Shown: positions 1,726-12,248, numbered from the stretch's first letter. The stretch is DNA of 12,719 bases from Candidatus Heimdallarchaeota archaeon (GCA_016839945.1 JAEOTE010000028.1:1-12719), one strand, 5' to 3'. Notes: generated by a model not told the origin, from the letters alone. A program made the numbers and translations.

Positions 1726-1746
1726 GAAAATTTCTTTTTAAAATAT
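1726..1746 (+). promoter_or_regulatory. Possible archaeal BRE/TATA promoter of the purine operon
   Basis: gaaaatttctttttaaaatat: purine run followed by TTTTAAAA about 65 nt upstream of ATG 1809. AT-rich background makes this weak. Confidence 0.3.
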
Positions 1747-1808
1747 TCATATCTTGATATTTCACTTGAAAAGACAAAATTCATATGAGAAAAGATTATT
1801 GTGAAGTC

Positions 1809-3101
1809 ATGAAAGCAATAATCAATGTAAAAATATATGATTATGAAACCTATATAGAAGATGGTTATTGTATTTATGGTAAGGAAATCATTGAAGTTGG
1901 AGAGATGAAGAATTTTCCTGAATATGATGATGAAATAATCGACGGGAAAAACAAAATCCTTCTTCCAGGTTTGATTAATTTCCACACTCATATCTATTCT
2001 ACACTTGTACGTGGAGCTTCCATTCCTTTTAATCCAAAGACCTTTAAAGATATTTTAGAGCAACTTTGGTGGAAATTTGATAGCAAGCTTGATAATACAT
2101 CTACTTTTCATAGTGCTATGGTTTATGGTTTAGAATCATTAAAGAATGGAGTAACATCTCTTATTGACCATCATGCTAGTGGGATAGATATTATTGGTAG
2201 TCTTGATGCACTCAAGAGTGCTATTGTTGATAAATTAGGTATGCGTGGGATATTCTGTTTTGAAACAAGTGATCGTTTTAATGTGGAACAATGTATTGAG
2301 GAAAACTTGGCTGGTCTAAAGTATGATTCTTCAGATGCTAAAGGTATGTTTGGTCTGCATGCTTCTATGAGTCTTTCAGAAGAAACTCTCGATAAAGTTT
2401 CTAGAGTTCTCAAAGGTGCATCAATCCATGTTCATGTTGCTGAGAGTTTAGAGGATGAAGAAGATTCTATTAACAAATATAGTAAGAGAGTTGTAAATCG
2501 ATACACTTACTATGGTTTACTAAACAAAGATTCTATTCTTGCTCATTGTGTTCACATTGACGAAGATGAAGCGAAACTAATAATTCAAAATAAAGCTGTT
2601 ATTGCTCTCAATCCAACATCAAACATGAACAATGCTGTAGGATCATTCAACATCAATCTCTTTAGAGAAAATAATATACCTATTATCATAGGAAACGATG
2701 GTTTGGGAACTAATATTGCAAAAGAATGGACTTATTTCTTCTTTGCAGGTAAAGCAGGTATCAAAGATGCAGCTGGTATAGGCTTTGATGAACTACTCAA
2801 ATACATCAATGGTTCTTATGATTACTTTGGTCGTCAAATGGGAATAAAGATAGGAAAAATCAAGGAAGGATATGTTGCTGATTTTGTACTTGTTCCTTAT
2901 ATTAATCCAACAGAAATGGATGAAACCAATGCTTTTGGTCATGTCTTCTTTGGATTATTTGATAACTTCAAACCTTCTTGTGTTATAGTTAAAGGTAAAA
3001 CTCTCATTGAAAATTATAAGAGTAATTTTGATGAGGAAGAGATATATAATAACGCTCTTAATGCTTCCAAAGCTTTATGGGAAAGGTTAGGTGATAATTA
3101 G
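1809..3101 (+). CDS. ssnA: SsnA-like metal-dependent amidohydrolase (purine-catabolism-associated aminohydrolase)
   Basis: PGLINFHTHIYSTLVRG (HxH metal motif), GVTSLIDHHAS (SsnA-type), FGLHAS, HVHVAES, LAHCVH, NPTSNMNNAVG, GND. Start at 1809 (MKAIINVKIYD, preceded by TGTGA) preferred over 1785. Confidence 0.82.
   Translation: MKAIINVKIYDYETYIEDGYCIYGKEIIEVGEMKNFPEYDDEIIDGKNKILLPGLINFHTHIYSTLVRGASIPFNPKTFKDILEQLWWKFDSKLDNTSTFHSAMVYGLESLKNGVTSLIDHHASGIDIIGSLDALKSAIVDKLGMRGIFCFETSDRFNVEQCIEENLAGLKYDSSDAKGMFGLHASMSLSEETLDKVSRVLKGASIHVHVAESLEDEEDSINKYSKRVVNRYTYYGLLNKDSILAHCVHIDEDEAKLIIQNKAVIALNPTSNMNNAVGSFNINLFRENNIPIIIGNDGLGTNIAKEWTYFFFAGKAGIKDAAGIGFDELLKYINGSYDYFGRQMGIKIGKIKEGYVADFVLVPYINPTEMDETNAFGHVFFGLFDNFKPSCVIVKGKTLIENYKSNFDEEEIYNNALNASKALWERLGDN
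3089..3095 (+). promoter_or_regulatory. Ribosome-binding site AGGTGAT for the gene starting at 3102
   Basis: AGGTGAT ends 6 nt before ATG 3102; archaeal-type Shine-Dalgarno embedded in the upstream gene end. Confidence 0.7.
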
Positions 3102-4181
3102 ATGGATCTTTCAGTAAAACTACTAGGATTAGATTTCGATAATCCGTTAGGACCTGCTGCTGGACCTCTTGTTGAAGGTCTAGAAAATATGCAATTCTTC
3201 AACAAAAATTCTTGCGGTTATAATGTTGCAAAAACCATTTCTGTAGAAGGAGCTATAGTTCCTAAACCATGTATTGCAGGAACTTCAAACACTATTTACA
3301 ATTGTGAATTATGGTCAGAGTTGCACTCTGATGTTTGGATAAATGAAATCCTTCCAACAATACACAAAGAAAAGAAAAAACCATTAGTCATTAGTGCTGG
3401 ATATAAAGAAGAAGATTTCAGATACTTAATTCCAAAGCTTGATCCTTTTGCAGATATGTTTGAGATATCCACTCACTATGTTTCAGAGGATTTACTTCCT
3501 GGTATAGTAAAAAGTATTAGAGAAAACACTAATAAACCTGTTTTTATGAAACTCAGTCCTCACATAGATGATTTTCTAGGCTTTGTAAAAACTGTTATCG
3601 ATGCTGGTGCTACAGGAATTGTAGCAATAAATTCCTTAGGTCCTAGTGCTGCAATAGATCTAAAGAATCGTTCAGTTCTTCTAGCTGAAGAAGTATGGAT
3701 AAGTGGTCCATCCATCAAACCTGTAGCTTTGCATAGAGTCTATAAAATTCGAGAAGCTTTCCCTGATATTCCAATTATTGGTGTTGGGGGTATTGGAAAA
3801 GCTGAAGATATTTTAGAGTTCATTCTTGCTGGAGCTGATCTTGTACAGATGCTTTCCTCTGCATTAATTAGAGGGAGAGACTTGTATGATAAGATAATTA
3901 CCAAGCTTCCAACTGCCCTTGAAGAGTATGGTTTTTCATCTATAGAAGAGATAAGGAAAATAAGGAAGGAGACAATTTTCAAACCTAAAGAGAAGATTGA
4001 AAATAATCCTCCTTCATTCAATGATAACTGCACCTTGTGTATGATTTGTGTAAAAATTTGTCCTGCTGGTGCATTAGAAAAAATCGATGATAAGATTGTT
4101 GTTGATAAAGAGAAATGCATAAGATGTGGTTTATGTCAATCTCGATGTCCAGTCGATGCAATTTATGGTGTGTTAACATGA
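3102..4181 (+). CDS. Dihydroorotate/dihydropyrimidine dehydrogenase-family (PreA/YgfK-like) FMN oxidoreductase with C-terminal 2x[4Fe-4S] domain
   Basis: NPLGPAAGP, AKTIS, KPCI, YNCELWSE, KPVFMKLSP, AINSL, ISGPSIKP, IIGVGGI, AGADLVQ; ferredoxin motifs CTLCMICVKICP and CIRCGLCQSRCP. The NxSCP catalytic loop is replaced by EISTHY. Confidence 0.85.
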   Translation: MDLSVKLLGLDFDNPLGPAAGPLVEGLENMQFFNKNSCGYNVAKTISVEGAIVPKPCIAGTSNTIYNCELWSELHSDVWINEILPTIHKEKKKPLVISAGYKEEDFRYLIPKLDPFADMFEISTHYVSEDLLPGIVKSIRENTNKPVFMKLSPHIDDFLGFVKTVIDAGATGIVAINSLGPSAAIDLKNRSVLLAEEVWISGPSIKPVALHRVYKIREAFPDIPIIGVGGIGKAEDILEFILAGADLVQMLSSALIRGRDLYDKIITKLPTALEEYGFSSIEEIRKIRKETIFKPKEKIENNPPSFNDNCTLCMICVKICPAGALEKIDDKIVVDKEKCIRCGLCQSRCPVDAIYGVLT

Positions 4182-5392
4182 GAAAACACATATTGAGATG
4201 TATAAGTTGTAAAAAAGAATTTGAACCAAAACCAGGTCTTTACTACTGTGAAGATTGTGGATATATATTAGGTACTTTAGAAGTTGTTTATGACTATGAT
4301 TCTATTCAAGAAGAAGCTGTTGTAAAAGAAAGGAATTTTGATAAAAAAGCATCTATGTATCAATTTGAATTTCTCTTACCTACTAAACCAAAATTAACAT
4401 TTGATAACGACATTGGTGGAACTCCTTTGTACAAATTCGATCTTTTTGGATTGAAAGATGTACAAGTAAAATATGATTGTTCTAATCCTTCCAGCTCTTA
4501 CAAAGATCGTGCTAGTTCAATAGCTATTAATAGAGCTCTTGATGAGGAGAATGATATTGCTTTTTGTGCTTCAACTGGCAATGCTGCTTCATCCTTAGCT
4601 ATGCTGAATGCTCAAACAGAAATGGACACATATATTTTCGTACCTGCAGCTATCCCGGATGGCAAAAGAGCTCAACTAGAAATATCTGGTGCTAAGGTTT
4701 TTGCAATTGAAGGAACTTATGATGAAGTATATGATTTCTCCTTAGAGTTAGGATTAAAGAAAGGTTGGTACTGTCGTCATGCAGCTATTAATCCTTACCT
4801 TCTTGAAGGGAAAAAAACTGGTGCTTTTGAAATTGTTATTCAGAATGATTTTGATGTTCCAGATTATGTTCTTGTTGGAGTAGGAGATGGAACAGTTGTG
4901 AGCTCTCTTTACAAAGGTTTCTGGGAATTCAAAGAAATAGGATTAACAGATAAGATACCAAAAATAATTGGGGTTCAAGCTGAAGGAATATCAGCTATAA
5001 AGGAAGCTTTTGAGAAAGGGAAACCTTACAAACCTATATCAATTGGAGGGAATACTATAGCAGATAGCATATCTGTAGGGAAGCCAAGAGATGTGATAAA
5101 AGCATGTAAATATGTTGAAGCAAGTGATGGGTATTTCATCTCCCTCACTGATGAAGAGATTCTAGAAGCAATTGTTGATCTAGGAAAAACAACTGGAATC
5201 TTTGCAGAACCAGCTGGAGCAGTGCCTTATGGAGGGCTGAAAAAACTTATTTACGAAGAAAAAATTACTAAATCAGATACAGTTTGTCTTGTTATTACAG
5301 GTAATGGTTTGAAGGATGTTAATGCTGTTCAAGGAAGCATTAGCAGAGAAACATTATCATTTGAAGAAGCTATGAAAAGGTTTGAAGAATGA
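4178..5392 (+). CDS. Threonine-synthase-like (fold type II) PLP-dependent enzyme with N-terminal Zn ribbon; substrate probably not O-phosphohomoserine
   Basis: CISC..CEDC ribbon, NPSSSYKDRA (PLP Lys), ASTGNAASSLA, GVGDGT, GVQAEG, TIADSISVGKP, GIFAEPAGA, ITGNGLKD. True start is most likely 4178 (ATGA overlap with upstream stop, GGTG upstream), not 4115. Confidence 0.85.
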   Translation: MRKHILRCISCKKEFEPKPGLYYCEDCGYILGTLEVVYDYDSIQEEAVVKERNFDKKASMYQFEFLLPTKPKLTFDNDIGGTPLYKFDLFGLKDVQVKYDCSNPSSSYKDRASSIAINRALDEENDIAFCASTGNAASSLAMLNAQTEMDTYIFVPAAIPDGKRAQLEISGAKVFAIEGTYDEVYDFSLELGLKKGWYCRHAAINPYLLEGKKTGAFEIVIQNDFDVPDYVLVGVGDGTVVSSLYKGFWEFKEIGLTDKIPKIIGVQAEGISAIKEAFEKGKPYKPISIGGNTIADSISVGKPRDVIKACKYVEASDGYFISLTDEEILEAIVDLGKTTGIFAEPAGAVPYGGLKKLIYEEKITKSDTVCLVITGNGLKDVNAVQGSISRETLSFEEAMKRFEE

Positions 5393-6747
5393 AATTCATA
5401 TTGAATCGTAAAATAGTAGAAACTAGTGAATCACTAGGAATACATACACTTGATTTTTTGAGAAAAATGGGACTGACAGGTCCAAAAGAAGGCTGCCATG
5501 AAGGTGACTGTGGAGCCTGTATGGTTTTAGTTGGAATTTTACAAGGAGATGAAGTGAAATATAAAGCAATGAATTCATGTATTCTTCCTTTAGGAAAAAT
5601 CGAGGGAAAGCATGTTGTTACTATTGAGGGAATCAACATAGAAGGTTTAAATCCTGTTCAGCAAGCTCTTTGTGATGAAGGTGGTGTACAGTGTGGCTAC
5701 TGCACTCCTGGATTTGTTATAGCTCTTATGTCTTATTTCATGAATGAAGATCTCAAAGATACACCTGTTATTACTGCTGTAGAAGGCAATATCTGCAGAT
5801 GTACTGGATATAACTCAATTCTTCGAGCAGCTGAAATAGCATCATCAACAATTTCTGATTTAGATGATTCTAAAGGTAGAATAAATGCATTAATTGAAGC
5901 AAATTTCTTACCTAATTATTTTTCAGAAATCCCAGAAAAAATGAAGGCAATGAAAGTTCATCCTCAATTAAAGAAAGGCACTTTTGTTGCTGGTGGAACT
6001 GATTTATTTATTAACAGACAAACAGTAGAAAATCCTGTTTTCTTATCTGAACTAGGTTTTGACAAGATTTGGTCAGATGATGATTATATATATGTAGGTT
6101 CTGCAGCTGATATAGAATCCATTCGAACATCAGATGAATTGAATGCTCTTTTCGAAACTGCTCAACATTTTTCCAGAGTTTCAACACTACCAATTAGACA
6201 ACAAGCTACTATTGGAGGTAATGTTGTTAATGCCTCTCCAATTGGTGATCTTACTATTTATTTTCTTGCTTTAGATGCAGATATTAGTCTTAAATTAAAT
6301 GGGAGTAACAGGATTATGAAACTGAAAGATTTCTTCAAAGGTTACAAAATCCTTGATTTGAAAGACGGAGAAATTTTAGAATGGTTTAGAATTAAGAAGG
6401 AGAAAAAGTTGCTATCCTTTGAAAAGGTAGCAAAAAGAATGTATATGGATATAGCTAGTGTTAATAGTGCTTTATCCTTTAAAATTGAAGATAATATCAT
6501 TAAAGATCCTCATTTATCTGGTGGTGGTCTTGCCCCTATACCTTTGTATCTAGAGAAAGCTTCTGAATATCTTCAAAATAAGAAAATCTCTTCTGAAGTA
6601 GTTAAAGAAGCAGCACGAATTGCAGACACAGAAGTTTCCCCAATTGATGACGTCAGAGGAAGTGCGAAATACAAACGTTTGCTTCTTAGACAGTTGATTT
6701 ATGCTCACTTCGTAGAACTCTTTCCAGAATTGGAGGTGTCTCTATGA
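5389..6747 (+). CDS. xdhA: Xanthine dehydrogenase small subunit (2x[2Fe-2S] + FAD)
   Basis: GPKEGCHEGDCGACMV..NSC, QCGYCTPGF, GNICRCTGY; FAD motifs AGGTD and TIGGNVVNASPIGD; C-terminal SPIDDVRGSAKYKR. ATGA overlap with the upstream gene. Confidence 0.95.
   Translation: MKFILNRKIVETSESLGIHTLDFLRKMGLTGPKEGCHEGDCGACMVLVGILQGDEVKYKAMNSCILPLGKIEGKHVVTIEGINIEGLNPVQQALCDEGGVQCGYCTPGFVIALMSYFMNEDLKDTPVITAVEGNICRCTGYNSILRAAEIASSTISDLDDSKGRINALIEANFLPNYFSEIPEKMKAMKVHPQLKKGTFVAGGTDLFINRQTVENPVFLSELGFDKIWSDDDYIYVGSAADIESIRTSDELNALFETAQHFSRVSTLPIRQQATIGGNVVNASPIGDLTIYFLALDADISLKLNGSNRIMKLKDFFKGYKILDLKDGEILEWFRIKKEKKLLSFEKVAKRMYMDIASVNSALSFKIEDNIIKDPHLSGGGLAPIPLYLEKASEYLQNKKISSEVVKEAARIADTEVSPIDDVRGSAKYKRLLLRQLIYAHFVELFPELEVSL
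6732..6738 (+). promoter_or_regulatory. Ribosome-binding site GGAGGTG for xdhB
   Basis: GGAGGTG ends 5 nt before ATG 6744. Confidence 0.75.
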
Positions 6748-8984
6748 ACGATTTAATTCCTCCTCACACAAGAGGTGAATCTATCTTTGTTGATGATATT
6801 CCTGAACCTAAAAATATGCTTCATGTAGCTGTTTTCATTTCAAATATTCCACATGGAAAAATAATAAATTTGAATATTGGAGAAGCAGAAAAATATGAAG
6901 GGGTTGTCAAAGTTATTACTGCTAAGGATATTCCAGGTGAAAATCAACTTGGAAGAATCATTCAAGATGAAGAACTTATTGCAGAAGAAAAGGTAGATTT
7001 CATTGGGCAACCTATAGTAGTTGTTTATGCAAAAACAAAAGAACAAGCAAACAAAGCTAAAGATTTAATCAGTGTAGAATTCGATGAACTCCCAGCAATC
7101 TTTGATCCTAGGGAAGCTGCGAAAAAAGGTGCATTGATAGCTCCATCTCGAACTTTTACTTTGGGAGATGTTGATTCAACATGGGATAGTTGTGAAACCA
7201 TTGTTGAAGGTAGAGTTGATTCGGGTGGACAAGAACACGTCTATATGGAAACTCAAGGATGTTTAGCTATCCCTGAAGAAGATGGAAGATTGTTATTATA
7301 TTCAGCTACCCAAAATCCTTCCACAGTTCAAAGTACTGTCTCTGATATTTTAGATTATGATATGAATAAAATAGAAGTGGATGTAAAACGGATAGGTGGA
7401 GGTTTTGGTGGAAAAGAAGACCAAGCAACAGCTTGGGCAGCAATTTGTGCTTTAGGATCATATTATACAAAACAACCTGTAAAATTAGTACTTGATAGAC
7501 ATGAAGATATGATTGTTACAGGTAAACGTCATCCTTATTCAACAGATTACAAATTAGGTTTGGATAAAGATGGAAAAATCCTAGCTTTTACAGCTGATTA
7601 TTACCAAGATGCTGGTGCAGCTGCTGATCTTTCTACAGCTATATTGGGTCGAACACTGTTTCATGTGACAAACGCATATTTCATACCCAATGTTCGAGTT
7701 ACTGCTTATTCATGTAAAACGAATATAGTCCCAAATACTGCTATGCGTGGTTTTGGTGCTCCTCAAGCAATGTTTGTAATTGAATGTATTTTATCTCATG
7801 CTTCTGAAGTATCTAGTATTCCTGTTTCAGTTCTTCAAGAAAAGAATCTGCTCAATGAGGGAGATCAATTTCCATATGGTATGCAAGTAGAAAAAACAAC
7901 TGCAAGAAGAAGTTTCTCACAAGTCATTGAGGATTCTAGATTTCATGATTTAGTAAAAGAACAAGAAGAATTCAATAAAGAGAGTCGCTTCATCAAAAAA
8001 GGTATTTCAATTATGCCTATATGTTTTGGAATTTCTTTCACAGCTACTCACATGAATCAAGCAGGTGCTCTAGTTAATGTATATTGGGATGGGAGTGTGG
8101 GTGTGAGCACTGGAGCAATCGAGATGGGTCAAGGAGTTAATATGAAAATTAAAACTATTGCTGCTCGAGCACTTTCCATAAAACCTGAAAGAATTCGAAT
8201 TGAGAGTACTAATACTACTCGAGTCATAAATACTTCTCCAACTTCTGCAAGTACTGGAGCTGACTTAAATGGAAAAGCAACAGAAATCGCTTGCAAAAAG
8301 ATTATCGAGCGATTATTGAATGTCGCAGCTGAGAAGCTTGGACAAGGTGTAGTATCTTTTGAAAATGAAATTGTTTTACTAAATGGTAAAAAGACTGAAC
8401 TTACATGGGAAAATCTTGTTTGGTCAGCTTATCTTAGTAGAGTAAATCTTGCAGCTCAAGCTTTCTACGCAACACCTGGAATATATTTTGATTCTGAGAA
8501 AGAAAAGGGAAAACCTTTTGCTTATCATGCATTTGGAACAGCTGTTACTGAAGCTTCTGTTGATTGTTTAAGAGGTACTTATACCATCGATAAGGTTCAT
8601 GTTGTTCACGATGCAGGAAGGAGTTTGAATTATTTAATCGATCTTGGTCAAGTTGAGGGAGGATTAGTTCAAGGAATTGGTTGGTTGACTCTTGAAGAAC
8701 TTCAGTATGAAAATGGAAAATTAATTTCAGATTCTCTTGCTACATATAAGGTCCCAGATATTCATTTTGCTCCTGAAATCACAGTAAAATTCCTTGAAGA
8801 TGTAGATAATCCATATGCAGTTATGAAGTCAAAAGCAATAGGAGAACCTCCTTTTATGTATGGAATAGGTTCATACTTCGCAATAAAAGATGCTGCGCAG
8901 AAATTTAGAAATGATAAAGATTGGAGTTATTCAGCTCCTCTCACTCCTGAAAAACTTCTTCTCTATCTATATGATATAGAATAA
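6744..8984 (+). CDS. xdhB: Xanthine dehydrogenase molybdopterin-binding subunit
   Basis: GGQEHVYME, RIGGGFGGKE, DLSTAILGRTLFH, TAMRGFGAPQ, FGISFT, EMGQG, DLGQVEGGLVQGIG, SKAIGEPP. Equivalents of bovine XOR Q767, E802, R880, F914, F1009, T1010 and E1261 are all present. Confidence 0.96.
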   Translation: MNDLIPPHTRGESIFVDDIPEPKNMLHVAVFISNIPHGKIINLNIGEAEKYEGVVKVITAKDIPGENQLGRIIQDEELIAEEKVDFIGQPIVVVYAKTKEQANKAKDLISVEFDELPAIFDPREAAKKGALIAPSRTFTLGDVDSTWDSCETIVEGRVDSGGQEHVYMETQGCLAIPEEDGRLLLYSATQNPSTVQSTVSDILDYDMNKIEVDVKRIGGGFGGKEDQATAWAAICALGSYYTKQPVKLVLDRHEDMIVTGKRHPYSTDYKLGLDKDGKILAFTADYYQDAGAAADLSTAILGRTLFHVTNAYFIPNVRVTAYSCKTNIVPNTAMRGFGAPQAMFVIECILSHASEVSSIPVSVLQEKNLLNEGDQFPYGMQVEKTTARRSFSQVIEDSRFHDLVKEQEEFNKESRFIKKGISIMPICFGISFTATHMNQAGALVNVYWDGSVGVSTGAIEMGQGVNMKIKTIAARALSIKPERIRIESTNTTRVINTSPTSASTGADLNGKATEIACKKIIERLLNVAAEKLGQGVVSFENEIVLLNGKKTELTWENLVWSAYLSRVNLAAQAFYATPGIYFDSEKEKGKPFAYHAFGTAVTEASVDCLRGTYTIDKVHVVHDAGRSLNYLIDLGQVEGGLVQGIGWLTLEELQYENGKLISDSLATYKVPDIHFAPEITVKFLEDVDNPYAVMKSKAIGEPPFMYGIGSYFAIKDAAQKFRNDKDWSYSAPLTPEKLLLYLYDIE

Positions 8985-8993
8985 AAAATACTA

Positions 8994-9962
8994 GTGTTTA
9001 TTATGAATGAAGAACATTATTGGAAAACTACATTGACAGAACTTGAGCAAGGAAAGCATGTTGTTTTAGTAGTTATAATAGATAGGAAAGGATCTGCACC
9101 TAATGTTCCAGGAGCAAAGATGTTTGTAACTAAAAGTAATGTTATGGGAACAGTAGGTGGAGGAAACTCTGAACATAAATTACTTAATCGAGCGCGAATT
9201 CTACTGAAAGAAAAAAAGCTATTTGCTGAAAAAATGTATATGGAACATAGTGAAGAAGCTCTGGAAGATAGTTCTGGAATGATTTGTTCTGGTTCTCAAA
9301 CCTTTGCATTGATCACACTAGGAGAAAGAGATATACAAAAAATCAAAGAAATCTGGGAGAGTTACAATAAAGCACAACCTGGTTTATTAACAATAAATGA
9401 AAAAGGCATTTCTTTTGAATCTGATAAAACTACAACACATAGTCATTGTTATTCCGAACAAGAAACTTCTTGGATGTATAAAGAGAATGTTGGAACACAA
9501 GATCGACTTTTCATCATAGGAGGAGGACATGTATCACTAGCACTTTCATGTATAATGGAATTCCTAGGCTTTCATATAACAGTTTTTGATGATAGAAAAG
9601 ATCTACCAACTATTGAATCTAATGTTTATGCTAACGTAAAAAAGATTGTATCCTATGAAGATATTGCAACATACATTCCTGAAGGAGAGAATGTCTATGT
9701 TACAATCATGACCTTTGGACATATTTCAGATGAACTAGTTCTTGAGAAAATCATTTCTAAAAAATGCAGATATATTGGAATGTTAGCAAGTTTAAAGAAG
9801 AAACAACAAGTCTTTGAAAATCTAGAGCAAAAAGGAATTTCAAAAGAACTACTGGATTCTATACATTCACCTATTGGTGTTAGAATTAAAAGCCATACAC
9901 CTGAAGAAATTGCAATAAGTATCGCAGCAGAAGTAATTCAAGTTAAAAATACAGAAGATTAG
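8994..9962 (+). CDS. xdhC: XdhC/CoxI-family molybdenum cofactor insertion chaperone
   Basis: KGSAPNVPGAKM, GTVGGG, GMICSG, IIGGGHVSLAL, MTFGHISD, YIGMLAS, IHSPIG..TPEEIAISIAAE; directly follows xdhB. Start is GTG 8994 or ATG 9003. Confidence 0.92.
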   Translation: MFIMNEEHYWKTTLTELEQGKHVVLVVIIDRKGSAPNVPGAKMFVTKSNVMGTVGGGNSEHKLLNRARILLKEKKLFAEKMYMEHSEEALEDSSGMICSGSQTFALITLGERDIQKIKEIWESYNKAQPGLLTINEKGISFESDKTTTHSHCYSEQETSWMYKENVGTQDRLFIIGGGHVSLALSCIMEFLGFHITVFDDRKDLPTIESNVYANVKKIVSYEDIATYIPEGENVYVTIMTFGHISDELVLEKIISKKCRYIGMLASLKKKQQVFENLEQKGISKELLDSIHSPIGVRIKSHTPEEIAISIAAEVIQVKNTED

Positions 9963-10037: not shown

Positions 10038-10460
10038 ATGGAATCACAAATGTCTAAAACCGAAATTGATTCATCAAGATCTAGAAGAGATACTATAAAC
10101 TTTTTTCTAAGTGGTTTAGTTTGGTCAGTATTATATCTCTTCATTCAATTAATAGTATGGTTGGTCAAAAAAGATTTCACCGTATCTCTATCTCTTTGTG
10201 GCAAAATAGGGATAGGAATGATAGCTTTTAGTTTAATAATTTTAGGTGGAAAAGATAAGCTTGCAGCTGCAACAGCTTCAAGGTATGTAGCTACAGGATC
10301 AAAATCCTCACATGATGATAGTGTTGCTACAGCTTCAAGAGAAGCTGCAAAAGAAAGTTTCTTACTTATTGTTGTTGCTCCAATTGGTGTATGGATGTTA
10401 CTATGGGGTTTAATATTTCTAATACCGTATGCTTTTGGTGTTCCATTTATTATCAGATGA
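10038..10460 (+). CDS. Hypothetical small membrane protein (about 3 TM segments)
   Basis: 140-aa ORF filling the gap between xdhC and the AKR gene, co-oriented with both; hydrophobic stretches FFLSGLVWSVLYLFIQLIVWLV, IGIGMIAFSLIILGG, FLLIVVAPIGVWMLLWGLIFLIPYAFGVPFII. Confidence 0.75.
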   Translation: MESQMSKTEIDSSRSRRDTINFFLSGLVWSVLYLFIQLIVWLVKKDFTVSLSLCGKIGIGMIAFSLIILGGKDKLAAATASRYVATGSKSSHDDSVATASREAAKESFLLIVVAPIGVWMLLWGLIFLIPYAFGVPFIIR

Positions 10461-10510
10461 GTTGTTATCATAAAAACTAATATACACAGATTTCAATAAG
10501 AGTTAGAACA

Positions 10511-11338
10511 ATGAGTCTTAATATTAATTCAACTGTAAAATTAAATAATGACGTTGAAATTCCTATATTCGGTTTAGGAACATATCTAGCAGAACAAGGA
10601 AAACAAGCAGAAGATGCTATACAAATCGCTTTAGAAGCTGGTTACAAACATTTTGACACAGCTTCTTTCTATTTCAATGAAGAGAGTGTAGGTAAGGCTA
10701 TAAGAGATAGTTCCTATGATAGGAAGGAACTCTCCGTAACAACCAAATTATGGAATTCTGATCATGGTTATGAAAATGCTCTGACTGCCTTTAATAAAAG
10801 TCTGAAGAAACTTAATATCGAGTATATTGATCTTTATCTAATCCATTGGCCTGTTGAAGGAAGGAGAAAGGAATCTTGGAAAGCTTTAGAAAAAGTCTAC
10901 AAAGAAGGTCAATGTCGAGCTATTGGAGTTAGCAATTACACAATCATGCATCTAGAAGAACTTCTCTCAGAATGTGAAATTAAACCAACTGTAAACCAAG
11001 TAGAATATCATCCATTTTTGTATCAAAAGGATTTAAGGGATTATTGTAAAAGCAATAATATTATTCTTGAATCTTATAGTCCTTTAACTAAGGGACAACG
11101 CTTACATGATGAAAAACTTGGAAAGATAGCTAAAGAATATAATCGATCTCCAGCTCAGATTTTAATTAGATGGAATCTAGAGCAGAATGTTATTGTTATT
11201 CCAAAGTCTTCAAACAAGAATAGGATAATTGAGAACTCTAAGGTTTTTGATTTCTCAATAAAGCCAGAAGATATGGAGCGATTAAATTCTCTAAATGAAA
11301 ACTATAGATGTACTTGGGATCCAACTAATATTCCTTAA
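10511..11338 (+). CDS. Aldo-keto reductase (AKR5-like; glyoxal / 2,5-diketogluconate reductase type)
   Basis: IPIFGLGTY, HFDTASFYFNE, TTKLWN, DLYLIHWP (D-Y-K-H tetrad), AIGVSNY, NQVEYHP, YSPL, IPKS. Confidence 0.95.
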   Translation: MSLNINSTVKLNNDVEIPIFGLGTYLAEQGKQAEDAIQIALEAGYKHFDTASFYFNEESVGKAIRDSSYDRKELSVTTKLWNSDHGYENALTAFNKSLKKLNIEYIDLYLIHWPVEGRRKESWKALEKVYKEGQCRAIGVSNYTIMHLEELLSECEIKPTVNQVEYHPFLYQKDLRDYCKSNNIILESYSPLTKGQRLHDEKLGKIAKEYNRSPAQILIRWNLEQNVIVIPKSSNKNRIIENSKVFDFSIKPEDMERLNSLNENYRCTWDPTNIP

Positions 11339-11345
11339 GAAAAAT

Positions 11346-12248
11346 TTAATCTACAAATATTGATTTTGGAAGTACAGCTCTAACTCCAGGAGTTATATCC
11401 ACCAGTTGACTTATTCTCATATCTACAACACAACTACACAATGCATAAGCTTCTTCTCTGCTCAGACCTTTTTCTTGAACTATCCAATCTATCATATCTC
11501 TCAAAGCTATTTTACATGCTTCATCTGTTGTTTCTGCCCAGGCGGTAGTCATGTAATAATCATCAGTTTCATAATGAGGACGATCAATCTTCTTTTCTTT
11601 ATTAACAATAAGTTTGATTGTGACATCTGCATCAATCTCTACTGCAGTTCCACAAACTTCTCCATCTCCTTGAACAGCATGTACATCACCTACTGCAAAG
11701 AGTGCTCCTTCTACAAATATAGGAAGATAGACTTTTGTTCCAGCTGTGCAAGCTCTTGAATCCATATTTCCCCCATATTCTTTTGGAATGAGAGTCCCAT
11801 GATCGTGTTTAACTTCTGTTGGTGCAACTATTAATGTTCCAGGAAAAGGATCGATAGGTATTTTCACTTTTTCACTAAAAATAGCATATCCATCTTCTAT
11901 AGGTATAATTCGTGTCCAAGGTTCAGGATATTCAGGAGCTAAGAAACCAAAATTGGGTATTATGCAACAAGAACCTTGTTTAGCTACATCAATATTCAAG
12001 ATATGAACTTCAAGTGTGTCTCCTGGTTCAGCACCTTCAACATAAACTGGTCCTGTTGCAGGATTTATATGTTCCATATCAAAGTCTATTGGTAAATCCT
12101 CAGGTTTCTGAATTACTTGATTAAAAGCATCTTTACATTCAAAAACAACGGTATCACCTGATTTGATTTTTAAAGCTGGAGCATTCTCCTTATCTGCTTG
12201 AAATACTACATCATTCATTGAAACTCGGTGTATCATTTCAGAATTCAT
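11346..12248 (-). CDS. Acetamidase/formamidase family protein
   Basis: NPATGPVYVEGAEPGDTLEVHI, PFPGT, GGNMD, YLPIFVEGALFAVGDVHAVQGDGEVCGTAVE, EAYALCS..DMRISQLVD. Confidence 0.93.
   Translation of the reverse strand: MNSEMIHRVSMNDVVFQADKENAPALKIKSGDTVVFECKDAFNQVIQKPEDLPIDFDMEHINPATGPVYVEGAEPGDTLEVHILNIDVAKQGSCCIIPNFGFLAPEYPEPWTRIIPIEDGYAIFSEKVKIPIDPFPGTLIVAPTEVKHDHGTLIPKEYGGNMDSRACTAGTKVYLPIFVEGALFAVGDVHAVQGDGEVCGTAVEIDADVTIKLIVNKEKKIDRPHYETDDYYMTTAWAETTDEACKIALRDMIDWIVQEKGLSREEAYALCSCVVDMRISQLVDITPGVRAVLPKSIFVD

Follow-up and report, generated by a model that had tools for sequence, protein, structure and literature searches.

A six-gene operon in a stretch of DNA assigned to a Candidatus Heimdallarchaeota archaeon probably represents the conserved core of a purine-to-pyruvate fermentation in the Heimdallarchaeaceae, organized as a version of the reductive urate/2,8-dioxopurine pathway that we call type 2. 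The stretch, hereafter the window, is the entire 12.7-kb contig C178 of a 3.0-Mb metagenome-assembled genome (MAG; 186 contigs, 88% complete, 2.35% contamination). Positions 1785-9962 of its + strand encode, in this order, an SsnA-type amidohydrolase, a UacX-type reductase, a ThrC-like pyridoxal phosphate (PLP) enzyme and the xanthine dehydrogenase (XDH) proteins XdhA, XdhB and XdhC. A sequence-only reading of the window had proposed an operon for anaerobic purine ring cleavage; gene content and synteny support its membership of the reductive pathway, an assignment that we consider very likely. The archaeal host, the joined classical XDH, the ThrC-like enzyme and the missing selenium-cofactor trait are undescribed in the literature that we found, whereas the exchange of the reductase has already been published.

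The pathway was worked out in 2025 in the gut bacteria E. coli, C. difficile and C. sporogenes (PMC12507026; bioRxiv 10.1101/2025.04.24.650524). Urate is converted to 2,8-dioxopurine by XdhD or XdhAC, YgfK catalyzes the reductive dearomatisation of 2,8-dioxopurine and SsnA opens the ring; HyuA follows, and then YgeW with carbamate kinase (yielding ATP), YgeY and YgeX lead to pyruvate. The variants within known clusters comprise XdhD or XdhAC, YgfK or UacX, and YgeW/YqeA or UacY (PMC12507026; bioRxiv 10.1101/2025.04.24.650524). UacX, a DHO_dh-family protein that lacks FAD and is probably ferredoxin-dependent, takes the place of YgfK in C. difficile (PMC12507026), and every published uricolytic gut strain carries the selenium-cofactor trait (SelD, YqeB/YqeC; bioRxiv 10.1101/2025.04.24.650524). 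Neither of these two reports mentions archaea or threonine synthase, and our literature search found no paper tying Asgard archaea to SsnA, or threonine synthase to ssnA, hyuA or ygeY. The published neighbourhood survey scored any PF00291 protein as YgeX, so that a ThrC-like substitution is invisible there. The three canonical Clostridial clusters that we fetched have the layout YgeX-YgeY-OTC-carbamate kinase-UacT-SsnA-UacX-HyuA-XdhD-type.

The six genes of the window are co-oriented and almost gapless, as the sequence-only reading had described them. Their junctions are, in order, 0 nt, a 4-nt ATGA overlap, two further 4-nt overlaps and a 9-nt gap, and the genes are translationally coupled. 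We annotated neighbourhoods by tblastn with reference proteins from E. coli, Bacillota and Ca. Heimdallarchaeum aukensis, complemented by a few Pfam and NCBIfam scans. The same six-gene order was found in about 20 Heimdallarchaeaceae genomes at 54-93% identity, including the closed genomes of Ca. H. aukensis and Ca. H. endolithica as well as a 213-kb contig, and the operon is therefore neither a chance arrangement nor a binning contaminant. The host, suspected from the sequence to be an archaeon, belongs to the Heimdall group of the Asgard archaea and carries the operon natively: the MAG encodes the archaeal ribosomal protein L15e and the related loci are from Heimdallarchaeota. The GC content of the contig is ~34% vs 32.2% genome-wide; an rRNA search detected no SSU rRNA in the MAG. 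At one related locus (L006), a radical-SAM gene on the opposite strand (12547-13479, -) sits between uacX and the ThrC-like gene, and a similar additional gap of 1-2 kb occurs at this place in three other Heimdall genomes (L016, L017 and L021).

The first gene (1785..3101, +; alternative start at ATG 1809) encodes a cyclic amidohydrolase that is predicted to open the reduced dioxopurine ring. Its top NCBIfam match is NF005540 (SsnA) with 359 bits at a cut-off of 444, the next-best family reaching 137 bits. The protein retains the HxH, HVHVAE and GND metal ligands and has the IDHHAS, FETSDR and SNMNN motifs in common with E. coli SsnA (31% identity) and not with GuaD. The SsnA of Ca. H. aukensis, a close relative, is 50-57% identical to its Bacillota orthologues. 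The second gene (3102..4181, +) encodes an FMN-dependent TIM barrel (Pfam DHO_dh) with two C-terminal [4Fe-4S] clusters (Fer4), which had been interpreted as a mini-YgfK/PreA and a novel replacement; it is instead of the UacX type already published for C. difficile (PMC12507026). It is 78% identical to the Ca. H. aukensis orthologue, which in turn shares 43-57% identity with the orthologues from the type-2 clusters described below and 37-38% with the SsnA-adjacent UacX of canonical Clostridial clusters. In contrast to class 1 dihydroorotate dehydrogenase (DHODH) and the dihydropyrimidine dehydrogenase (DPD) PreA, the window protein has a shortened catalytic loop, E-I-S-T-H-Y, devoid of Cys, and there is no PyrK/PreT partner gene within the operon. 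The motif E-[IV]-S-T-H-Y is near-invariant in archaeal and bacterial UacX at the position where DHODH and DPD have the catalytic-Cys loop. The predicted function of the window protein is a ferredoxin-dependent dearomatisation of 2,8-dioxopurine.

The third gene (4178..5392, +) encodes a 404-amino-acid (aa) PLP enzyme of fold type II that bears a four-Cys zinc ribbon at its N-terminus, as in PRK08197-type enzymes, and is our candidate for the terminal lyase. The reading frame opens at 4115, and ATG 4178 was taken as the start because the homologues are ~403 aa long. The protein scores above the cut-off of TIGR00260 thrC (188.9 vs 167.1 bits), is called threonine synthase in public records and has threonine synthases as its nearest structures at the sequence level (E = 1e-47 for the overall alignment). 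It shares with the solved ThrCs (2zsj from Aquifex, 6cgq from Bacillus and 1uim from Thermus) the fold type and the PLP lysine motif, SYKDR aligning to their SFKDR. Unlike these enzymes, it has A-A-I-N-P-Y-L-L-E-G-K-K-T where solved ThrCs have N-S-x-N-P-x-R-x-E-G-Q-K-T (N-S-V-N-P-Y-R in 2zsj and 6cgq), and its gene context holds no threonine-pathway gene. The Leu at the position of the ThrC Arg is invariant across 12 bacterial orthologues. In the Thermus threonine synthase structures, the Asn, Ser and Arg of this motif bind the substrate phosphate; the residues that bind the phosphate of O-phosphohomoserine thus appear to be lost. The MAG has other ThrC paralogues on contigs C73 and C145, one of which keeps the Arg. 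The paralogue on C145 (10691-11728, - strand; 449 aa) lacks the phosphate-motif Arg and has a C-terminal extension of ~90 aa that resembles a winged-helix domain.

The last three genes encode XdhA, the small subunit with two [2Fe-2S] clusters and FAD (5389..6747, +; Pfam Fer2, Fer2_2, FAD_binding_5 and CO_deh_flav_C; TIGR02963, 315 bits vs cut-off 467), the molybdopterin subunit XdhB (6744..8984, +; TIGR02965, 794 bits vs cut-off 849.5), and XdhC, a chaperone for insertion and maturation of the molybdenum cofactor (Moco; 8994..9962, +; Pfam XdhC_CoxI and XdhC_C). XdhB keeps the equivalents of E803, R881, F915, F1010, T1011 and E1262 of human xanthine oxidoreductase (XOR; 2ckj), which correspond to E802, R880, F914, F1009, T1010 and E1261 of the bovine enzyme. 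Judged by these residues, the active site is of the true xanthine type and not of the aldehyde-oxidase type; the description of this enzyme as a canonical oxidative-type XDH thus holds for all xanthine-specific positions. The subunit architecture, the XdhC chaperone and all six residues are shared with Rhodobacter capsulatus XdhAB-XdhC (1jro) and eukaryotic XOR, but in contrast to those enzymes XdhABC is encoded at the end of a reductive-pathway operon, and its host is an archaeon of the anaerobe type. Five Heimdallarchaeaceae genomes, two of them closed, yielded no uricase, no SelD over cut-off and no YqeC.

The phyletic distribution of these genes was assessed in 83 genomes of the class. SsnA is present in 25 of the 30 genomes of the window's own family, with two distant matches (32-35% identity) elsewhere, and is tracked by the ThrC-like gene, found in 25/30 family genomes and in none of the 53 others. 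XdhB likewise occurs in 25/30 family genomes and additionally in 7 of the 12 genomes of a sister family, and at the two sister-family loci that we examined XDH stands alone as XdhC-XdhA-XdhB, without SsnA.

A search for loci with the single ThrC-like sequence retrieved archaeal kin only, and the bacterial loci came via an alignment of bacterial homologues. Orthologues of the ThrC-like enzyme, 48-63% identical among themselves and to the Heimdall proteins, are found in Dethiosulfatibacter, Fusibacter, Acidaminobacter and other Clostridia, Kosmotogaceae, Petrotoga, Mesoaciditoga, Thermosipho, a spirochaete and Bipolaricaulota. Most of about 50 bacterial loci (Clostridia, Thermotogota and Spirochaetaceae) have the type-2 arrangement Mo-FeS-FAD-YgeY-OTC-CysK-like-HyuA-SsnA-UacX-ThrC-like-FAD-FeS-Mo, where Mo, FeS and FAD denote the subunits of three-subunit molybdenum (Mo) enzymes. 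The neighbourhood survey thus shows that the triad of ssnA, PreA-like and ThrC-like genes noticed in the window widely co-occurs with purine genes. The ThrC-like gene directly follows SsnA-UacX in most of these loci, YgfK taking the place of UacX in three of them (a Thermotogae MAG, Bipolaricaulota and an unclassified bacterium). Five genomes have the ThrC-like gene not beside SsnA, and each has an SsnA-type gene elsewhere; for example, a Thermosipho MAG (L130 9998-16046) has a ThrC-like-FeS-FAD-FAD-FeS-Mo operon with no SsnA within 10 kb and SsnA elsewhere in the genome. The block order CysK-like-HyuA-SsnA-UacX-ThrC-like is the same in Dethiosulfatibacter aminovorans DSM 17477, Fusibacter tunisiensis DSM 24436, Acidaminobacter, Kosmotogaceae and Mesoaciditoga, and the Ca. 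H. aukensis proteins are 37-59% identical to those of bacterial type-2 clusters over SsnA, UacX, ThrC-like, HyuA and CysK-like, and 57-78% over YgeY and OTC-like. The bacterial block is flanked by two three-subunit Mo enzymes, whereas the archaea have a TIGR03311-type fused enzyme and XdhABC. Unlike in bacterial type-2 clusters, the lower-pathway genes are dispersed in the window's genus and YgeY is mostly absent.

The ThrC-like gene is nearly complementary to YgeX. Among 81 genomes from the order of Dethiosulfatibacter (Clostridia), canonical SsnA over the cut-off occurs in 11, all of which have YgeX, mostly adjacent, and none the ThrC-like gene. The latter is present in seven of the 81 genomes, two of which also have YgeX, never adjacent. 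Two further five-genome sets positive for the ThrC-like gene contain YgeX in 0/5 and 1/5 genomes; one genome is common to both sets, and the only positive is also part of the 81-genome sample, where it is one of the 2/7. Since related genomes are not independent, this complementarity is a pattern and not a statistic. YgeX (NF006058 over cut-off) was detected in 0/31 Heimdallarchaeaceae genomes, the E. coli control being positive, which bears out the earlier observation of a ThrC-fold enzyme without YgeX. Replacement of YgeX by the ThrC-like enzyme is plausible from these comparisons; whether it is the terminal beta-lyase, acting on diaminopropionate or albizziin, is close to an even call that we place slightly on the doubtful side.

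We built a maximum-likelihood tree of SsnA (39 rows, quick search, SH-aLRT support) in which the rows are tblastn segments and the root lies on the long GuaD branch. The archaeal sequences form one clade (SH-aLRT 98) nested in a Bacillota clade (96), which itself lies within the clade of ThrC-like-associated SsnAs. The SsnAs of E. coli, Chloroflexota, Elusimicrobia and Cloacimonadota fall outside the latter clade, the archaeal SsnA belonging to a clade sister to that of E. coli SsnA. The nesting of the archaeal sequences is held by supported nodes despite the long-branch root and the segment rows. The simplest reading of this topology would be a single transfer from Clostridia-like bacteria to the ancestor of the Heimdallarchaeaceae, after which the bacterial three-subunit Mo enzymes would have been swapped for the TIGR03311-type enzyme and XdhABC.

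The lower-pathway genes were identified in the relatives of the window. The stretch immediately before the operon of Ca. H. aukensis encodes MocA, a fused 2Fe-2S/Mo enzyme (TIGR03311, 897 bits vs cut-off 830), a YgeY with 60% identity to the E. coli protein, a carbamoyltransferase of the OTC-like type, a beta-propeller protein, a CysK-like PLP enzyme (487 aa, on the other strand) and the adjoining HyuA-type hydantoinase. Other family members have HyuA, an OTC-like gene, YgeY and carbamate kinase ~5-15 kb upstream of the operon. HyuA occurs in 23/30 family genomes, ~5-15 kb from SsnA where both share a contig, and YgeY in 8/30, with only 3 of the 24 genomes of the window's genus having it. A search of the 88%-complete MAG for hyuA, ygeW, ygeY and xdhD recovered an XdhD-type enzyme; orthologues of HyuA (best match 31% identical), YgeY and the cluster-type (YgeW-type) carbamoyltransferase were not found. 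Its carbamate kinase, 52% identical to E. coli YqeA, is encoded on contig C168 (L056 3696-10332), convergent with genes for an 885-aa fused 2Fe-2S/Mo enzyme, which is a candidate urate reductase of the XdhD type, MocA and two ferredoxin-like proteins. The XdhD-type enzymes of Heimdall and canonical Clostridial clusters are 43% identical. The ferredoxin-like proteins (361 and 289 aa) have two C-terminal [4Fe-4S] clusters, match no other family and may serve the Mo enzyme or UacX as electron carriers. The 361-aa protein was also considered as a second UacX and rejected, as only its ferredoxin domain aligns.

The sequence-only reading had described the window as a compact variant, noting that hyuA, ygeW, ygeY and carbamate kinase are absent from it. 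The latter statement is literally true for what is a whole short contig, but in sister genomes HyuA, YgeY, the YgeW-type enzyme, carbamate kinase, MocA and the XdhD-type enzyme are encoded next to the operon, and the last three are present on C168 of this MAG; the apparent compactness reflects either an assembly artefact or gene dispersal. At the left end of the window, a beta-propeller gene (3-1625, - strand) whose internal repeats are nearly identical continues past the contig end. Genome G023, from the same genus, has four large open reading frames of repeated paralogous beta-propeller units across the 10 kb that separate HyuA from ssnA (L063 8929-19000); the beta-propeller within the Ca. 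H. aukensis cluster (L019 5223-7079) is a different one. Such repeats probably broke the assembly of the window contig. Because HyuA lies beyond the propeller array in G023 and C178 ends in a gene of this kind, HyuA would lie off the left end, and a break in the contig best explains why it is missing from the window, a real loss also being possible at 88% completeness. A hydantoinase gene on C126 was evaluated as the missing HyuA and is not supported, its product being 30% identical to Ca. H. aukensis HyuA and its neighbours being unlike. The C126 cluster (L057 4178-10900) encodes a metallo-beta-lactamase-fold protein, this hydantoinase/dihydropyrimidinase-like amidohydrolase, a PLP decarboxylase, an Asp/Glu/hydantoin racemase, a class-III aminotransferase and an SDR protein, and may represent another hydantoin or pyrimidine-type catabolic route. 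It should also be noted that a second OTC-like gene comes after carbamate kinase in G023 (L063 394-4842) and G010 (L064 2882-10000), both of the window's genus, and that G023 has an additional aspartate-carbamoyltransferase-like paralogue beside HyuA. Given the second OTC-like genes and the lack of YgeY in 21 of the 24 genomes of the genus, both ureido groups may be cleaved phosphorolytically, with twice the ATP.

What the analysis shows directly is which genes are present, their synteny and phyletic pattern, the motifs of their active sites and their bacterial ancestry; in the proposed route every substrate is inferred, that of the ThrC-like step above all. XdhAB, matured by XdhC, would oxidize hypoxanthine and xanthine to urate, and another enzyme, a TIGR03311-type Fe-S/Mo fusion (on C168 in the MAG), would reduce urate to 2,8-dioxopurine. 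UacX would then dearomatise 2,8-dioxopurine using low-potential electrons, followed by ring opening by SsnA. The ureido groups would be removed by the hydantoinase, one or more carbamoyltransferases with carbamate kinase (ATP) and, in some lineages, YgeY. Finally, the ThrC-like enzyme would act in place of YgeX, releasing pyruvate by beta-elimination on 2,3-diaminopropionate or on its 3-ureido precursor albizziin. The Heimdall lineage thus shares with the known uric-acid clusters of E. coli, C. difficile and C. sporogenes SsnA and an adjacent UacX-type reductase, the XdhD-type Mo enzyme, HyuA, YgeY, the OTC-like carbamoyltransferase and carbamate kinase. It differs from them by its archaeal host, by having the ThrC-like (and CysK-like) enzyme instead of YgeX, by the Rhodobacter/eukaryote-type XdhA-XdhB-XdhC joined to the operon, and by the selenium markers SelD and YqeC not being found.

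Several observations weigh against this fermentation or its proposed last step. SsnA, at 359 bits against 444, and both XdhA and XdhB remain below their NCBIfam equivalog cut-offs, and the route may be incomplete in a MAG without HyuA, YgeY and YgeW-type orthologues. In bacteria, the CysK-like enzyme is an equally available substitute for YgeX, which leads to an alternative that we consider unlikely, namely that the pathway is the same but the 485-aa CysK-like enzyme does the work of YgeX. The ThrC-like enzyme would then have another pathway job, e.g., on one stereoisomer, in urea elimination from albizziin, or in converting diaminopropionate to another amino acid. Indeed, most bacterial type-2 clusters have the CysK-like gene flanked by the OTC-like gene on one side and HyuA on the other; it directly precedes the ThrC-like gene in Soehngenia/Gudongella, is present elsewhere in the genome in four of the five genomes that lack it in the cluster, and neighbours HyuA in Ca. 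H. aukensis. However, it is not pathway-specific in the archaeal class, where it occurs in 59/83 genomes (63-94% identity), including families without SsnA or XDH, which leaves the strictly pathway-linked ThrC-like gene as the only PLP enzyme gene specific to the pathway in the archaea. In the MAG, the CysK-like gene (C64, L059 4067-5524) encodes a CysK/CBS/SbnA-like protein with an N-terminal extension of ~100 aa and has unrelated neighbours.

A further concern is that type-2 SsnA, UacX and HyuA are only 30-38% identical to their canonical counterparts, so that the upper-pathway substrate could differ. Type-2 clusters that degrade a different purine isomer or a related N-heterocycle, with a substrate of the ThrC-like enzyme other than diaminopropionate, appear more doubtful still. 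The identity of YgeY and the OTC-like protein between the cluster types (60-78%) sets these three apart, the Mo enzymes of the two types differ, and most type-2 hosts are without YqeC (absent from four of the five type-2 bacteria checked), a selenium marker of all published uricolytic strains. On the other hand, XdhB has a complete xanthine-type active site, the XdhD-type partner retains its 43% identity to the canonical-cluster enzyme, and the 60% identity between the YgeY proteins of Ca. H. aukensis and E. coli argues for the same ureido-amino-acid intermediate. The ThrC-like gene mostly abuts Mo-enzyme genes, in Thermosipho without a nearby SsnA, which fits a Mo-linked role as well. In most loci Mo-enzyme subunit genes follow it directly, and it heads the Thermosipho operon; with SelD and YqeC undetected as described above, the protein could serve the Mo enzymes of hosts without the selenium system, e.g., supplying sulfur for the Mo=S ligand as a desulfhydrase-type donor, instead of being a catabolic lyase. 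Such a role is improbable in our view: XdhC is already present for cofactor maturation, the near-complementarity with YgeX would be left unexplained, and in Soehngenia/Gudongella the ThrC-like gene stands among lower-pathway genes with no Mo gene adjacent. Least credible is a set of ordinary housekeeping enzymes (guanine deaminase, DHODH and threonine synthase) next to an XDH making antioxidant urate, although the TIGR00260 score and public records favour threonine synthase, and a preprint takes Xdh as an aerotolerance trait (10.1101/2025.02.26.640444). Both the ThrC phosphate site and the DHODH catalytic loop are lost, separate pyrB/pyrC/pyrD-like genes are found on C82 and ThrC paralogues on C73 and C145, and the strict operon coupling is accompanied by synteny with bacterial uricolytic clusters.

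We therefore favour the purine-to-pyruvate fermentation. If it is correct, these Asgard archaea would gain pyruvate and ATP by fermenting purines, with Xdh serving catabolism instead of marking aerotolerance. The Xdh of Heimdallarchaeia has been read, from Hodarchaeales isolates, as a source of antioxidant urate and an aerotolerance trait (preprint 10.1101/2025.02.26.640444). Its operon coupling to the reductive ring-cleavage genes in the Heimdallarchaeaceae, where no uricase was found, affects this interpretation and argues for a catabolic role. A pathway described only in bacteria in 2025 would thereby be extended to Archaea, to the Asgard family of the closed Ca. Heimdallarchaeum genomes, with purines as a concrete and testable fermentative substrate for the Heimdallarchaeaceae. 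More tentatively, the ThrC-like protein might be a new PLP beta-lyase for 2,3-diaminopropionate or albizziin that defines a largely selenium-independent type-2 branch, imported once into the archaea and there joined to classical XDH; this branch might be widespread in sediment and subsurface Clostridia and Thermotogota. Across a large class of purine clusters, an uncharacterised enzyme that databases call 'threonine synthase' either replaces YgeX or goes along with its loss. The pathway was believed always to come with selenium-cofactor markers; these were not found in most type-2 hosts checked.

Upstream of ssnA, a candidate archaeal TATA-like box, TTTAAAATA (1738..1747, +), can be read from the sequence within a 160-nt AT-rich intergenic region, ~40 nt 5' of the ssnA start. 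A scan for bacterial-consensus promoters, run on this archaeal sequence, returned fewer sites than shuffles predict; the promoter and terminator scans gave nothing, and an Rfam scan of the window had no match. Oligo-T tracts follow the xdhC stop codon and may act as a terminator. The stretch downstream of the operon (10038-12248) encodes a 140-aa protein without an assigned family, an aldo/keto reductase (10511-11338) and an acetamidase/formamidase-like protein (11346-12248, - strand). These three genes adjoin the operon in no related locus and thus probably lie outside the system.

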